Shown one piece after another: positions 4,502 to 22,315 of a stretch of DNA of 64,000 nt. The notes below the pieces were generated by a model. It worked only from the letters and a program-made list of their open reading frames with translations. It was not told the origin of the DNA and ran no database searches. The stretch is from an uncultured SAR86 cluster bacterium (lineage in GTDB: Bacteria; Pseudomonadota; Gammaproteobacteria; Magnimaribacterales; D2472). Both the position numbers and the translations under genes were made by a program. Numbering within the stretch: the first letter of the stretch is position 1; each line of letters begins with the position of its first letter. The stretch lies in contig CACNUQ010000001.1 in the NCBI GenBank assembly GCA_902623685.1, positions 51,667 through 115,666 on the forward strand. The letters run 5' to 3'.

Positions 4502-4579
<78 letters not shown>

Positions 4580-11940: not shown

Positions 11941-12020
11941 AAAAAATTGCACTAAGAATATCTAATATTTTTTAAGAAGCTATATCTTTTTTAAATCAGT
12001 TTTAATACTATAAAAAATAA

Positions 12021-12105
12021 TGCAAAGGGGTGGTCATTTTGGCCTGAGATCTTTTTTTTGAAACCCTTTGAACCTGATCCATACAATAGTGGCGGAGGAA
12101 TTGCA
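12021..12105 (+). ncRNA. TPP (thiamine pyrophosphate) riboswitch
   Basis: GGGGTG...CTGAGA...ACCCTTTGAACCTGATC...AAT...GCGGAGGAA core; P1 = TGCAA(12021-25)/TTGCA(12101-05); directly upstream of a TBDR-PnuC-kinase operon. Confidence 0.93.
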
Positions 12106-14210
12106 TGCAAACCAACATAAATATTTTTTTCTTACTTCTCTTTATCCCCTTAAGCATTAATTTGTTTTCTGAGAATATTGAGGAAATTGTAGTAAAAGGT
12201 GATTGGCGTGAGTCAAGCATTCTTGAAGAGGATTCAAGCATTGTAATTTTGAATTCAAAAATTTTAGATTCGCAACCTATCAAACATTTTGAAAACCTCT
12301 CATACTTAGTTCCAAATTTAAATTTTGCTGCTAGTGATTCAAGGGCAAGACATTTTCAAATCAGAGGCATTGGTGAGAGGTCTGGTTATGAAAGAACTCC
12401 CAATTCAGCTGTTGGATTCATAATTGACGATATTGATTATTCAGGTCAAGGTGGTATTGCAACCACTTTTGATGTTGATCAAATTGAAGTTCATAGGGGG
12501 CCTCAGGGATCAAGAATAGGCTCCAATGCTTTGGCAGGGTTAATTTATGTTCAAACAAAAGAACCGACTGATGAGTTTGAAGGAATTAGTGAGATAACAT
12601 ACGGAGATTTTGGGACTTTAAGTACAGGTATTGCATTTGGCGGTCCGTTAAAATCAAATAATAATCTTACCTATAGATTTGCATTGCGCAAAGATTATTC
12701 CGATGGATTCAGAAAGAATTTATTTCTAGGAAAATCCAATACATCCAAAAAGGATGAAAATACTTTTAGATTTAAATTCAATTGGAAAATAAGCAACGAA
12801 ACTTTAGTTAAACTTCTCATAACCCAAATAGATTTAAATGATCCTGCTGATATTTGGACCATAGATGGAAGTTTAAATACTCTTTCTGATAGACCAGGGA
12901 TGGATTCTCAAAAAACTAATGGATTTGGCATAAAACTTTCTCATGCATTTAAAAATTTTGGATTCCAAAGTCTAACCAGTATCACCGATACAGATGTTGA
13001 ACTAAGTTACGATGCAGATTGGGGTAATGCTAATTCTCATTTTCCTTATACATATGATTATTATTCTGAAACATTAAGAACTAGAGAAACATTTAGTCAG
13101 GAATTTCGATTAGTTTCAGATGCTGCAAATTTTAATGATGGTCTTAATGCGGAATGGGTATTAGGCATAAGTTATTTTGATGTCAAAGAAATCAACATAA
13201 AAAATGATGACGGTATATACGGAGACCCCTCTGATCCATTTGGGCCCTATGCAAGCCAGTCCTCTTCGAAAAGTAACTTTTCCTCTGAAAATTATTCACT
13301 TTTTGGAAATCTTGATTACTTTATTAGTGAGAATACAAAGTTTTCTATTGGTGCAAGATTGGAAGCTTATGAAGCAAAGTATTTTGACTCATATGGAGAG
13401 TCGTTCAACCCTTCAGATAATATGTCCGGAGGCAAAATCTCACTTAGTAGCTTTTTGAATGATCACTTGAATATTTTTGTTAGTGTAGCCAGAGGGTTTA
13501 ATCAAGGTGGTTTTAATCTCAATCTTGGTTTAGACCCAAATTCTCAAAATAATAATTTGTATTTTGATCCTGAGTTTCTTACCAATTACGAATTTGGCCT
13601 CAATGCAAAAACATTAGATTCAAAAATCAATATTTCTTCGGTTATTTTTTACTCTGATCGATCAGATCAACAAGTTCTAATATCCACTCAAGTTGATCCA
13701 ACCGATCCCAATACTTTTTCCTTTCTTACTCAGAATGCTGCAGAAGGAACAAATTTTGGACTTGAGTTAAATCTAGATGCTCAACTTAATGAATATTTAA
13801 ATATCTTTACAAGAGTTGGATTACTAAAAACTGAAATTAAAAATTGGAAGTCCCGTCCAGATCTTGAGGGAAGGGCTCAAGCACATGCCCCCGAAAAAAG
13901 TTATGCCTTTGGAGTGAATTGGTTAATTTCTGACAAAGCATCATTAACCATAGACATTACTGGCAAAAGTGCTTTTTACTACTCAGATTCCCATAATAAT
14001 AAATCTCAGTCATATGCATTAACAAATTTTAGTTATGAATATGCAATTGATAATTGGACCTATTCTTTGTGGGCAAGAAATATTTTTGATGAATATTACT
14101 CAACCAGAGGTTTCTATTTTGGAAATGAAGCTCCAAACTTCGAAGACACATTATATGAGCGTCATGGCGATCCAAGGCATGTCGGTCTAAGTGTAAGATA
14201 TGATTTTTGA
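12105..14210 (+). CDS. TonB-dependent receptor, probable thiamine uptake
   Basis: TonB box EEIVV, plug motifs IRGIG and IEVHRGPQG, C-terminal YDF; under a TPP riboswitch. Confidence 0.9.
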   Translation: MQTNINIFFLLLFIPLSINLFSENIEEIVVKGDWRESSILEEDSSIVILNSKILDSQPIKHFENLSYLVPNLNFAASDSRARHFQIRGIGERSGYERTPNSAVGFIIDDIDYSGQGGIATTFDVDQIEVHRGPQGSRIGSNALAGLIYVQTKEPTDEFEGISEITYGDFGTLSTGIAFGGPLKSNNNLTYRFALRKDYSDGFRKNLFLGKSNTSKKDENTFRFKFNWKISNETLVKLLITQIDLNDPADIWTIDGSLNTLSDRPGMDSQKTNGFGIKLSHAFKNFGFQSLTSITDTDVELSYDADWGNANSHFPYTYDYYSETLRTRETFSQEFRLVSDAANFNDGLNAEWVLGISYFDVKEINIKNDDGIYGDPSDPFGPYASQSSSKSNFSSENYSLFGNLDYFISENTKFSIGARLEAYEAKYFDSYGESFNPSDNMSGGKISLSSFLNDHLNIFVSVARGFNQGGFNLNLGLDPNSQNNNLYFDPEFLTNYEFGLNAKTLDSKINISSVIFYSDRSDQQVLISTQVDPTDPNTFSFLTQNAAEGTNFGLELNLDAQLNEYLNIFTRVGLLKTEIKNWKSRPDLEGRAQAHAPEKSYAFGVNWLISDKASLTIDITGKSAFYYSDSHNNKSQSYALTNFSYEYAIDNWTYSLWARNIFDEYYSTRGFYFGNEAPNFEDTLYERHGDPRHVGLSVRYDF

Positions 14211-18770: not shown

Positions 18771-18814
18771 TTGCATTTGTAAATGAGAATGATTATCATT
18801 TTCATTCTCATTTA
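18771..18814 (+). promoter_or_regulatory. Sigma70 promoter overlapped by a Fur box
   Basis: TTGCAT(18771)-17 nt-TATCAT(18794); AATGAGAATGATTATCATT matches the Fur consensus; perfect 13-bp inverted repeat TAAATGAGAATGA (18780-92) / TCATTCTCATTTA (18802-14). Confidence 0.85.
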
Positions 18815-18863
18815 GGCTATTTAGTCTCTTTGAGCGTATTTACTTTTAAGGAGAATAAATTTC

Positions 18864-21065
18864 ATGGAAAACAAATGGCCTAATATTCAAACAAAAATAC
18901 ATTTTGTAATTATGGGATTGCTTGCAATTCTATTTTTTGTTCCAGCTTTTGCTGATACAAATTATGATCTTGAGACAATCGAATCTGTCAGTATCATAGG
19001 AACCTTTCAAGATCCGTCAGATGTTCCCGGATCTGTAACAGTAATTTCCAACGAAGATCTGCAAAAAGTAATTGATACAGATATCCATAAAATTCTTTCT
19101 GCAGTTCCTGGAGTTTTCTTTAGAACAGAAGATGGTTATGGTTTAAGACCAAATATCTCTATTCGAGGAACAAGTTTAGATAGATCTGGAAAAATATCTA
19201 TAATGGAAGATGGAGTATTGGTTGCACCCGCACCATATACATCTGCATCGGCATATTATTTCCCAACTACTGCAAGAATTCATGCTGTTGAAGTTCTAAA
19301 AGGACCATCTGCAATTACTCAAGGTCCTAGCACTATTGGTGGAGCTTTAAATCTTATAAGTACACCTATCCCTACTGAAGGAAAAGGTAAATTTGTCCAA
19401 GAGCTTGGTGATAATGGCATGACTAGATCTCACTTAGTTGTGGGTGGAGAGAGTGGTTCATTTGGTGGCATGGTTGAATTCCATGAACATGCTACTGATG
19501 GATTTGATTCTATTGCTAATGTAGGAGGCGACACTGGTTTTCAAAAGTCTGACATGTTAGTCAAACTTAGATATACATCAGGAGATCATCAGTTATTATT
19601 CAAGTTTCTTGACTTAGATGAGTCTTCTGAACAGACATATGTTGGCCTTTCTCAGGCAAGTTTCAATAAGAATCCAAGAATGCGTTATGGCATGACTCAG
19701 TACGACATGATGGATAATGATGGAGAGCAGGAATCCATCACATATAAAGGGTCTTTTGGTAATTTTGATGTTATTTTTACATCGTTTAGCAATGATTATC
19801 ACAGAGACTGGTTTAAGGTAGATAAAGCTAATAATAGCAAGACAGGCGGAGTGAGTAACAGTATAAATGGCGTTATTGAGGCAGCAAATGCTGGTAATGC
19901 AATTGCTCAAGGGATTCTTGATGGTACGCAAGCTACTGAAGTAAAGTTAAAGCATAATAATAGATTCTATGGCAATGAAGGGATCCAGTTTCAAGTATCT
20001 ACCGATATAGAAAATCATTCTATAACATTTGGTTACAGAGACTTAGAAGACTATGAAAGCAGAGATCAGGGATATGAATGTTTCCAGCAAAGAAGTAATC
20101 GAACAAATTCAGCCCTTTATGTTTGTGGTAGTGGTTTCACTGGTAGTAATAACAGATTAAGAGAAACAGAAGCTACTTCATATTTTCTTCAAGATACTAT
20201 CTCAATGGATAAACTTACCTTAACTCTAGGTTACAGATCAGAAGAGTACGACAAAGTTGAAAATAGATGGAAAGATGGGGTTAGTGGTAGTAGAAAAGTG
20301 CCAGATCCTAAATATGTTAATAAAACATCTACAGGAGATTATTCAACCTTCGGTATAGGTGCAACATATGATATGAATGAAAATCTTAAGCTTGTTGCAG
20401 GTTTCCACCAAGGAATGTCACCTGTATTTAATGGTGATGCGGAAGAAGCTGATAATATCGAATTAGGCTTTAGATATAACAAAGGCAGTACTGCTCTCGA
20501 AGTTATGTATTTCTCAAGCGATTATGCAAACTTAGTAGCAGAGTGTAAAAACTCTAATGGTGGAGACTGTGATCCTGGTGATACATTCGATGGAGGAGAA
20601 GTTGATGTTTCTGGCCTAGAAGTCGATGCATCATATATTGTTCAAGGCAATGGGGTAAGTTTTCCTATAGCTGTTACCTTCTCATCAACTGATGCTACTT
20701 TTGAAAATAGTTTCGATAGTGATTACTTTGGTGTGGTTGCATCTGGTGATGATCTTCCATATATTCCTAGTTCAGTCTTAGCACTAAGTGCAGGCTTCAT
20801 AACTGAAGATGGCTGGAGTGGATATTTGAGAATGGCTGATCATGGAAGTTCTTGTTCTACAGCTCAGTGCGGTGCTTTTGAAAATATAGATTCATACAGC
20901 TATGTAGATCTTTCTATTAGAAAGAGAGTTAGCGAAAAGTTAGATGTGTACGGCGTTTTAGAAAACGCAACAGATAATGAGGATATTGCTGCTAGAGCTC
21001 CAAAGAGTGGGGCAAGATCACAAAAACCTCAAACATTTAAAGTAGGATTTAGTTATAAGTTATAA
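18864..21065 (+). CDS. TonB-dependent iron receptor, FecA-like
   Basis: EDGYGLRPNISIRG, MEDGV..APAPY, VEVLKGP plug motifs; C-terminal beta strand; AAGGAG SD; Fur box upstream. Confidence 0.92.
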   Translation: MENKWPNIQTKIHFVIMGLLAILFFVPAFADTNYDLETIESVSIIGTFQDPSDVPGSVTVISNEDLQKVIDTDIHKILSAVPGVFFRTEDGYGLRPNISIRGTSLDRSGKISIMEDGVLVAPAPYTSASAYYFPTTARIHAVEVLKGPSAITQGPSTIGGALNLISTPIPTEGKGKFVQELGDNGMTRSHLVVGGESGSFGGMVEFHEHATDGFDSIANVGGDTGFQKSDMLVKLRYTSGDHQLLFKFLDLDESSEQTYVGLSQASFNKNPRMRYGMTQYDMMDNDGEQESITYKGSFGNFDVIFTSFSNDYHRDWFKVDKANNSKTGGVSNSINGVIEAANAGNAIAQGILDGTQATEVKLKHNNRFYGNEGIQFQVSTDIENHSITFGYRDLEDYESRDQGYECFQQRSNRTNSALYVCGSGFTGSNNRLRETEATSYFLQDTISMDKLTLTLGYRSEEYDKVENRWKDGVSGSRKVPDPKYVNKTSTGDYSTFGIGATYDMNENLKLVAGFHQGMSPVFNGDAEEADNIELGFRYNKGSTALEVMYFSSDYANLVAECKNSNGGDCDPGDTFDGGEVDVSGLEVDASYIVQGNGVSFPIAVTFSSTDATFENSFDSDYFGVVASGDDLPYIPSSVLALSAGFITEDGWSGYLRMADHGSSCSTAQCGAFENIDSYSYVDLSIRKRVSEKLDVYGVLENATDNEDIAARAPKSGARSQKPQTFKVGFSYKL

Positions 21066-21070
21066 CAGTT

Positions 21071-21282
21071 TTCTCATAGGAGGTTACCATCAAAAGTTGT
21101 GGTAGCTTTACTCCCTGAACCCTTCATTATGTTCCCTAAGACGAACACAGGGTTTACGGTAACCTCCTTTGAGGAACCTTCTCAAAAGGAGTCAATAGAA
21201 GGATAAGACTTCGATTCCCCTCATCCTGTTCTCTATTCTCATCCGATTATAGGGTTTTTATTGGCTCCTTGCGAGAGTTTTT
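21071..21282 (+). ncRNA. Candidate structured non-coding RNA: two tandem three-way-junction units
   Basis: Unit 1: AGGAGGTTACC(21078-88)/GGTAACCTCCT(21158-68). Unit 2: AAGGAGTCAATAGA(21186-99)/TTTATTGGCTCCTT(21257-70). G-U pairs favour the + strand; T-tract at 21278-82. No family recognised. Confidence 0.6.
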
Positions 21283-21300
21283 CTATTTACTTAGACAATA

Positions 21301-21328
21301 TTGCACTGCAAAAGATATCTAGTACAAT
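21301..21328 (+). promoter_or_regulatory. Sigma70-type promoter of tRNA-Ala
   Basis: TTGCAC(21301)-16 nt-TACAAT(21323), 13 nt before the tRNA. Confidence 0.6.
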
Positions 21329-21341
21329 TGTCACCTTATAT

Positions 21342-21417
21342 GGGGCTATAGCTCAGCTGGGAGAGCACCTGCTTTGCAAGCAGGGGGTCGGCGGTTCGAT
21401 CCCGCCTAGCTCCACCA
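21342..21417 (+). tRNA. tRNA-Ala (TGC)
   Basis: GGGGCTA/TAGCTCC acceptor stem with G3-U70, CCTGC-TTTGCAA-GCAGG anticodon arm, TTCGATC T-loop, CCA. Confidence 0.98.
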
Positions 21418-21421
21418 TGAG

Positions 21422-22315
21422 TTATTCAATTACCATTAAATCTTCTGCTACCTTTATATTGCCACTAAAAGTTCGTCTAGTTTCTTGAAGAATTTCATCA
21501 GGAGTTGAGCCCCAAAAAAGTATATGAGATAGCAATAAAAGTTGAGGCTTAGCTTTTGAGGCTATCTCTCCGACTTCAAGCGTTGATGTGTGATGACCTT
21601 GGTGATATTTTTGCCAATCTTTCGTTTTTTCTAGAAATCCAGCTTGAGAGTAGACTTCATGAACTAATATGTCTGCTTTATAAGCTAATTTCTCTATTGT
21701 CTTGGATGGCCCAGTATCTCCTGAAAATACAATGACTTTATCTTCTGTAGTGAATTTAAAACCGTAAGCATCATCAAAACTTCCATGCGGAACCTTAAAT
21801 GCTTCAACTTTTACATTTTCATCCTCGTATATTAATCCTTCTTCAATAGATTTAAATTTATATTTATAGCCTTTTTTATTTGATGGTTGTGTGCCAAAAA
21901 TTCTGTAATTAATGTCTTCTTCGTATGCCATAAGAATAGAACTTGCCATTTTATCTAATCCGCTTGGCCCAAATAATTTCATTTCCTTATCCCTGCCCAT
22001 AATCCATGGAGTGAGCAATAAATCTGCCAAGCCTGCAGAATGGTCAGAGTGAATATGAGTTAAAAAAGCATATTCAAGATTTTTAACAGATAATGCTTTT
22101 ATATTTCCTCCCCATTCTGGAGAGAGAGCGGCAGCACTTCTGACAACGCCTGGTCCAAAATCAACTAAGTAGGCTTGATCATTTACTATTACTGCATAAG
22201 CTGAACCTTTTCTTTCCGGATCAGGATTGGGAGTACCGGAACCCAGCACTATTAATTTAGTCGCAGCATTTAAAATGAATGGTAAGAGCAACAATGGTAA
22301 AAATAATTTTTTCAT
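21422..22315 (-). CDS. Secreted MBL-fold hydrolase, RNase Z/AtsA (arylsulfatase-like) family
   Basis: Signal peptide; LGSG.P, THIHSDH, SGDT, LVHE, HT motifs. Confidence 0.85.
   Translation of the reverse strand: MKKLFLPLLLLPFILNAATKLIVLGSGTPNPDPERKGSAYAVIVNDQAYLVDFGPGVVRSAAALSPEWGGNIKALSVKNLEYAFLTHIHSDHSAGLADLLLTPWIMGRDKEMKLFGPSGLDKMASSILMAYEEDINYRIFGTQPSNKKGYKYKFKSIEEGLIYEDENVKVEAFKVPHGSFDDAYGFKFTTEDKVIVFSGDTGPSKTIEKLAYKADILVHEVYSQAGFLEKTKDWQKYHQGHHTSTLEVGEIASKAKPQLLLLSHILFWGSTPDEILQETRRTFSGNIKVAEDLMVIE

Follow-up and report, generated by a model that had tools for sequence, protein, structure and literature searches.

The window analyzed here, a 64,000-nt stretch of DNA from an uncultured SAR86 cluster bacterium (contig CACNUQ010000001.1), carries a TonB-dependent receptor gene that encodes 733 amino acids with Plug and β-barrel domains (18864–21065; all coordinates are positions within the window, + strand). 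A non-coding block begins 5 nt past its stop codon, TAA (21063–21065), and folds into two successive structured modules, unit 1 (21071–21175) and unit 2 (21179–21277). The block is bounded on its 3′ side by the promoter-like boxes of a tRNA-Ala(UGC) gene (TTGCAC, 16 nt, TACAAT; 21301–21328), and the tRNA gene itself (21342–21417) is the invariable downstream neighbor of the modules. We conclude that the modules are a previously undescribed, strongly constrained RNA family, and that their job is probably gene regulation.

Fold, strand and sequence constraint

Unit 1 is a three-way junction, as indicated by its minimum free energy (MFE) fold, its score with the covariance model R1 described below (126.8 bits) and covariation. 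Its basal stem, P1, pairs TTCTCA with TGAGGA (21071–21076/21170–21175) and AGGAGGTTACC with GGTAACCTCCT (21078–21088/21158–21168), a 17-bp clamp that joins the ends of a module of ~105 nt. The inner hairpins, AAAGTTG..TAGCTTT and TGAACCCT..AGGGTTTA, comprise P2 (21093–21109) and, beyond the unpaired junction strand ACUCCC (21110–21115), P3a (21116–21123/21149–21156) and P3b (21130–21134/21143–21147), the latter enclosing the loop CCUAAGAC (21135–21142). Unit 2 is a diverged paralogue whose MFE fold has a long basal stem and two inner hairpins; it exposes an unpaired UUCCCC tract (21215–21220) and is followed by a run of five T residues (T5, 21278–21282) that is found in only 6 of 20 aligned genome loci (L009–L014). 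The tandem copies share the unpaired C-rich motifs ACUCCC, UCCCUAAG and UUCCCC, and the G+C content of the block is 42%, compared with 34.7% for the genome. On the + strand, the segment 21066–21300 has an MFE of −75.2 kcal/mol and recovers both modules as independent folds, while its shuffles give −51.95 ± 4.26 kcal/mol (z = −5.46; 0/200 equal the real fold); the minus strand folds slightly less well (−71.8 kcal/mol, z = −4.5). The initial annotation, which was made from the letters alone, had described the distance from the stop, two units of the same plan, their stems, the T5 tract and the GC-richer composition, and all of these observations were confirmed.

A second pairing can be drawn within unit 1. 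The 3′ half of P2, UGGUAGC (21100–21106), can pair with the 5′ strand of P1 (21084–21089), which reads GUUACCA here and GCUACCA in most relatives, and the 3′ strand of P1 holds a similar GGUAAC (GGUAGC in most relatives). Judged by complementarity, this alternative P1/P2 helix would be mutually exclusive with the main fold and would form first during transcription.

For the main covariation set, 65 distinct sequences of the unit 1 type were aligned with the model. Standard pairs make up 95.6% of its 2329 cells, compared with 42–59% when partners are slid, and compensatory changes occur in 16 of 36 pairs (P1, 11/16; P3a, 3/8; P3b, 2/5), with P2 invariant; none of 500 shuffles reaches these values. 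Since the alignment was fitted to the model, its counts lean towards the model; an independent MAFFT/RNAalifold run on 20 genomes yields the same helices and 8/36 compensatory pairs. The covariation check proposed in the initial annotation thus came out in favor of the fold. G-U or U-G pairs appear on the + strand in 65/65 distinct sequences at two P2 pairs, in 42 at pair 56–104 and in 38 at pair 5–129, and such numerous wobble pairs indicate an RNA transcribed in the same direction as the receptor gene; together with the fold score, they uphold the initial view of a structured non-coding RNA pair on this strand. A minus-strand sponge of the CsrB/RsmZ type was rejected, as ~14% of paired cells are G-U on the + strand and would become A-C mismatches on the minus strand, and as CsrA was not found in the window's assembly (82% complete).

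Sequence constraint on the block far exceeds that on the gene ahead of it. Over 171 genome pairs, identity is 0.92 in the unit 1 interior and 0.80 in the covarying basal stem, compared with 0.72 over the final 300 nt of the gene and 0.53 for third codon positions. About 60 interior nucleotides of unit 1, those of the loops and junction among them, are nearly invariant. Little or no variation is seen in AAAGUUGUGGUAGCUUUACUCCC and the CCUAAG motif, and the hairpin AAAGUUGUGGUAGCUUU is identical in 65/65 distinct sequences. Variation is concentrated in the internal loop and includes 1–2-nt indels among homologues, which argue that the open frame spanning unit 1 is not a gene; a coding function was rejected on this basis. 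The same loop bears on TTCATTATGTTCCCT (21123–21137), which the initial annotation had read as the exact complement of a Shine-Dalgarno (SD)-spacer-start arrangement. Part of this segment is the internal-loop stretch CATTAT, whose sequence and length differ from homologue to homologue, and the complement is therefore not a conserved feature.

The constraint on unit 2 was assessed in 18 genomes. Its basal stem shows compensatory changes in 6 of 15 pairs, its interior differs between clades and evolves fast, and a (U/C)YCCCC tract is kept in 17/18 sequences, the remaining one having only CCC. With filters off, R1 aligned the full length of the window's unit 2, scoring 18.5 bits on the + strand versus 9.6 bits on the minus strand, and gave 10.4 bits for the unit 2 of another clade. 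In loci of the G047/G048 type, the second copy is a plain unit 1 paralogue (52–67 bits with R1). The end-to-end alignment and these paralogous copies bear out the description of two units with one plan; as judged by sequence comparison, unit 2 is a diverging duplicate of unit 1.

Searches for known families returned no match to the block. At the gathering score, Rfam 15 found only two tRNAs and a thiamine pyrophosphate (TPP) riboswitch in the whole window (the aptamer lies at 12016–12117, + strand, and scores 61.7 bits against a gathering score of 54.3). At E ≤ 10 over 20900–21500, nothing in 21066–21341 came near a gathering score, the best models being eukaryotic microRNAs and long non-coding RNAs (15–17 bits), and ARAGORN called no tRNA-like gene in the receptor-tRNA spacer. 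Neither BLAST nor the covariance model found a repeat of the block in the window or the genome, which holds it at a single locus in 1.31 Mb. The two checks named in the initial annotation, against Rfam and against dispersed repeats, therefore both came back clear. A dispersed element resembling repetitive extragenic palindromes or miniature inverted-repeat transposable elements was rejected because there is a single locus per genome in the window's genome and its relatives, G029 excepted; G029 has two different receptor-module-tRNA loci on two contigs (L018, L033), probably reflecting a strain mix in the bin. A literature search found no paper describing the modules; PMC3358033 reports an abundant and apparently different non-coding RNA, located near sugar-metabolism genes.

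Distribution and downstream neighbors

By BLAST, unit 1 is present in 20 of the 31 other genomes of the window's genus, g1, and three weak matches in genus g5 were rejected as 19-nt chance hits. The covariance model R1, built from 20 sequences and searched over 139 genomes of the family, detects unit 1 in 18 of 31 g1 genomes and nothing real in nine other genera; a hit outside g1 (G001, 21.8 bits) lies inside a 901-aa open reading frame (ORF) and is a false positive. A degenerate core pattern run over all species genomes, a set that may leave out near relatives, gave 21 hits, only one of which is real by R1 (46.4 bits, cut by a contig end); the others score 12.9–18.1 bits and were rejected as chance. 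In a pattern scan of metagenome contigs, 80 loci were listed and 55 hold R1 matches.

The arrangement around the modules is fixed. All 20 genome loci have the order receptor gene, unit 1, second module, tRNA promoter, tRNA-Ala, and 45 of the 47 metagenome contigs on which both flanks could be judged have receptor tail, unit(s), tRNA-Ala. Copy number varies within this frame. Two clear unit-1-type copies stand in tandem on 12 metagenome contigs and at L026 (G047) and L028 (G048), where a further long-range stem element precedes the tRNA promoter, while L165 has one unit only and the tRNA 64 nt beyond it. Within g1, G045 has one diverged copy, which R1 misses even with filters off and whose kinship is a by-eye reading of the locus, and G021 has no module, a 60-nt spacer and no terminator. 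The module pair is genus-specific and vertically inherited, at a fixed locus, in zero, one or two tandem copies.

In genera g4, g5 and g9, the same receptor-tRNA spacer holds a single A-tract/hairpin/U-tract structure (4/4 folded); at one of these loci, L079, the terminator scan called nothing, yet folding gave a hairpin and U-tract, and the scan's stem extension had perhaps absorbed the T-run. In genus g8, another gene stands in front of the tRNA. The terminator stem GAGCUAC/GUAGCUC of the g5 genome G051 (L067, 1577–1699, minus strand) resembles P1 of the G047-type unit 1 (L026), a likeness that could be coincidence, as the terminators of other genera differ from P1. On sequence grounds, an expanded terminator loop may have given rise to the module.

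The tRNA-Ala promoter-like block is conserved in 20/20 aligned intergenic regions, and its TACAAT is kept in other genera too; a consensus promoter scan misses these boxes because the −35 box matches at only three of six positions. tRNA-Ile(GAU) (4502–4579) and tRNA-Ala(UGC) stand alone, 17 kb apart, although the rRNA spacer is their usual joint site; no rRNA was called within the window, and contig C2 holds another tRNA-Ala-like gene (91% identical). A metallo-β-lactamase-fold protein encoded on the minus strand (21422–22315) converges on the tRNA gene and scores 110–117 bits with RNase Z models, whose cut-offs are 252–363.

Plausible transcription with the receptor gene

The promoter region of the receptor gene (18771–18803) consists of TTGCAT (18771–18776) followed by a Fur-box-like 19-mer, GAAAATGATAATCATTCTC (18785–18803), which has two mismatches to the 19-mer consensus. 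The site is unique in the window, where 0.20 such sites are expected, and in 12 of 13 relatives, drawn from genera g1, g5 and g9, the orthologous gene is likewise preceded by this box, with one to three mismatches; the 13th has a broken ORF that could not be judged. The Fur-boxed receptor gene that the initial annotation had placed ahead of the block therefore stands, with the box 2.27 kb upstream of the RNA. The receptor itself scores under every curated siderophore-receptor cut-off, and its ribosome-binding site (RBS) is AAGGAG (18848–18853), unlike the GGGG type of most other receptor genes.

Scanning 20950–21450 revealed no promoter-like site and no terminator-like site, the T5 tract after unit 2 included. 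TATAAG (21055–21060) is at best a weak option for a promoter proper to the modules, since it lacks a usable −35 box and its letters come from Tyr-Lys codons. With no promoter of their own, the modules would be made from the Fur-boxed receptor promoter. Twenty RNA runs from eight studies contain part of the window, and in each of the four runs examined, from four studies, assembled contigs bridge the receptor stop codon under a 31-letter rule (21012–21234 and 21030–21180 with no mismatches, 21000–21212, and 20986–21086); a further contig, 21057–21195, covers the block without meeting that rule, and the contig-free stretches 20664–20971 and 21236–21323 carry no weight. These RNA-library contigs are compatible with co-transcription with the receptor gene. 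The initial proposal that the RNAs are processed from a transcript of the receptor promoter is accordingly plausible in its co-transcription part, given the contigs and the empty promoter scan; RNase III, the processing enzyme it gives as an example, is encoded in 26 of 31 relatives.

Other components of the RNA machinery were surveyed across the genus. Hfq (PF17209) is found in 0/32 genomes (55–92% complete), with positive controls detected, while Fur is present in 26/31 and RNase E/G in 25/31 relatives. The window's own assembly, which is 82% complete, gave no hits to Fur, RNase III or RNase E, a result that we take as incompleteness.

The end of the receptor gene may itself belong to the RNA element. 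Across 19 genomes, mean third-position entropy in the last nine sense codons is 0.55, compared with 0.97–1.28 in the nine preceding 10-codon bins, and this segment of low synonymous variation (21036–21065, stop included) contains a conserved AAG Lys codon. The low variation hints that a functional element begins inside the coding sequence; candidates are a processing site, a weak −10 box (TATAAG) and a part of the RNA itself. At some loci, the modules follow a different receptor tail: L023 has a receptor with a different C-terminus, and the receptor before the modules of G041 (L096) has the same N-terminus and a different C-terminal end (697 aa, ...VRFSIRKTF), similar to the tail preceding tRNA-Ala in two g9 genomes (L071, L072). 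The G041 receptor gene may be recombinant.

Candidate functions

Our preferred reading, quite possible but short of probable, is that the modules are a 3′ untranslated region (3′UTR)-borne, iron-coupled and processed RNA that base-pairs through its C-rich motifs independently of Hfq, with other receptor mRNAs as the best candidate targets. The modules would be transcribed from the Fur-boxed receptor promoter, i.e. under iron scarcity, and would probably be excised by RNase E and/or RNase III, after which they would act without Hfq as anti-SD-like base-pairing RNAs, their unpaired ACUCCC, UCCCUAAG and UUCCCC motifs pairing with G-rich RBSs. The best candidate targets would be the GGGGA-type sites of mRNAs for other TonB-dependent receptors (the parent transcript has AAGGAG instead), and iron limitation would in this way shift outer-membrane transport capacity towards the iron receptor.

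Predictions on the target side point in this direction. GGGG occurs at −20 to −4 in 10/18 receptor genes and 28/1175 other ORFs (Fisher p = 1e-11), and GGGGAA in 7/18 and 4/1175, respectively. For three C-rich segments of the modules, predicted pairing is stronger at receptor start regions than at the remaining ones (Mann-Whitney p = 6e-7 to 2e-6) and stronger than for composition-matched shuffles, of which 2, 6 and 8 of 100 do as well. Among the top 40 of 1193 predicted targets are eight receptor genes, where 0.6 are expected; enrichment of TTAGGG in start regions is weak (8 versus 4.4 expected). The receptor genes share a UGGGGAA-like RBS (e.g. C21:9106, C2:101253, C2:75751–77928) found in 2.4% of other ORFs, and GGGG-type receptor RBSs are about as frequent in four further genomes, which span three genera (6/12 to 8/17). 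This G-rich RBS may mark high expression or a shared regulator.

Several results weigh against this riboregulatory reading. When the whole interior is scanned for duplexes with 1193 start regions, it does no better than shuffles, and the lead to receptor targets is post hoc and driven largely by C-runs meeting G-runs. Ribosomal-protein genes also have GGGG-type sites, and genomes that lack the modules are as rich in GGGG receptor sites (G021, 6/12; G126, 7/16; G077, 8/17) as G041 (7/17), so there is no signal of co-evolution. G021 belongs to the same genus and has neither module nor terminator. With its 17-bp clamp, the module is unusually rigid for a base-pairing small RNA (sRNA), and its invariance covers paired regions, which a protein- or ligand-binding RNA would fit equally. 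Finally, the RNA support consists of assembled contigs, which carry no ends, strand or level and may include DNA carry-over. The fully specified version, in which a possibly terminator-derived riboregulator of a single genus, borne on a Fur-controlled iron-receptor transcript, throttles translation of other TonB-dependent receptors via C-rich 3′ modules, is distinctly unlikely on our assessment.

The modules could instead be a cis-acting 3′-end element that replaces a terminator, protects against 3′ exonucleases and maybe insulates or processes the transcript from the constitutive tRNA-Ala, with no target in trans. They occupy the exact place of the hairpin/U-tract of the sister genera g4, g5 and g9, the window's clade has a T-run after unit 2, and the combination of a fast-evolving unit 2 interior with a closing stem kept by compensation is expected if shape outweighs sequence. 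However, the modules do not qualify as a Rho-independent terminator, as the terminator scan is negative and 14/20 loci have no U-tract after unit 2. G021 manages without modules and terminator, and a stabilizer leaves the nearly invariant interior nucleotides unexplained when the adjacent coding sequence is 72% identical. We consider this explanation rather unlikely, though the strongest rival to base pairing in trans.

Another possibility is a tandem RNA that binds a protein or small molecule, as a ribonucleoprotein (RNP) component, a sponge or an aptamer-like sensor, with no mRNA pairing. Such an RNA would account for a three-way junction with an invariant ACUCCC junction strand, the invariant hairpin and the conserved CCUAAG, and for the invariance of paired positions; some aptamers and sponges typically come in tandem, and the ability of UGGUAGC in P2 to pair with the P1 5′ strand hints at a conformational switch. 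Nevertheless, no riboswitch or RNP RNA is matched in Rfam, CsrA was not found in the window's genome (0/1; assembly 82% complete), and there is no obvious expression platform because the modules are placed after a gene and before a tRNA that has its own promoter. We judge a binding RNA of this kind unlikely.

The initial annotation had favored an analogue of RyhB and PrrF1/PrrF2, the Fur-repressed iron-sparing sRNAs, that would repress mRNAs of Fe-S and haem proteins. The modules share with these RNAs a tie to the Fur regulon, here through linkage to a conserved Fur-boxed promoter, and a tandem duplication, as in PrrF1/PrrF2. One candidate target would suit this role: the ORF ranked 40th of 1193, whose CAGGGAG start region is complementary to CUCCCUG, has what looks by eye like an aconitase-like N-terminus. 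Of four traits compared, however, they lack three: neither RyhB, PrrF nor any other sRNA model matches in Rfam, there is no Fur box at the RNA itself, and the genus has no detected Hfq. The proposed SD-start pairing segment is not conserved, and our crude target scans show no enrichment of iron-protein mRNAs, favoring G-rich receptor RBSs instead. An iron-sparing role is therefore improbable, and the earlier interpretation as a whole is partly supported. A non-functional relic, whether a decayed mobile element, a pseudo-tRNA or a neutrally drifting expanded terminator, would suit the restriction to a single genus, the copy number of 0, 1 or 2, the diverged copy in G045 and the absence from G021, but is scarcely credible in the face of strong purifying selection (0.92 versus 0.53 at synonymous sites), compensatory stem changes, single-copy occurrence per genome and the negative ARAGORN result.

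Under the riboregulatory reading, the modules would work most like two groups of known sRNAs, by analogy, and with no Rfam match they are a member of neither. The first group is the 3′UTR-derived sRNAs of enterobacteria, e.g. CpxQ, SroC, DapZ and MicL. Like these, the modules follow a stop codon on the coding strand with no terminator between and are apparently made from the parent promoter, inheriting its regulation, here by Fur; as in that group, RNase E could plausibly enter at an AU-rich stretch that precedes the stable stem. Unlike them, the modules show no homology, lack Hfq and form two closed three-way junctions rather than a seed and a terminator hairpin. The second group is the tandem C-rich anti-SD sRNAs, namely the CcsR1–4 'cuckoo' RNAs of Rhodobacter, LhrC1–5 of Listeria and RsaE/RoxS of Firmicutes, which have tandem homologous copies and unpaired C-rich motifs matching G-rich RBSs, as the modules do; the modules' plausible co-transcription with the upstream ORF would match CcsR, and action without Hfq is possible. 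The modules differ in their three-way junction and 17-bp clamp, in the lack of an Rfam match (if those families are in the library) and in the motifs themselves, ACUCCC, UCCCUAAG and UUCCCC as opposed to CCUCCUCCC or UCCC loops. OmrA and OmrB are free-standing, Hfq-dependent genes under EnvZ-OmpR control. Like the modules, they form a tandem pair, and they have TonB-dependent receptor mRNAs among their targets, whereas the targets of the modules are only predicted. Both are reported to repress FepA receptor synthesis in E. coli (PMC11979758). The modules have no homology to either.

The organisms concerned are abundant ocean bacteria with small genomes that make heavy use of TonB-dependent receptors (1.3 Mb hold 19 Plug-domain matches) and lack Hfq, and a strongly constrained RNA family wired into the Fur regulon would offer a handle on post-transcriptional control and on the balance between iron and carbon uptake in this lineage. 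If the modules act only in cis, they would be a clean case of a terminator site replaced by a complex structured element. If the riboregulatory reading is true, they would provide a direct RNA link from iron status to the outer-membrane transport fleet in a streamlined bacterium without Hfq, and the receptors so throttled would share an unusual GGGGA RBS across the whole bacterial family.

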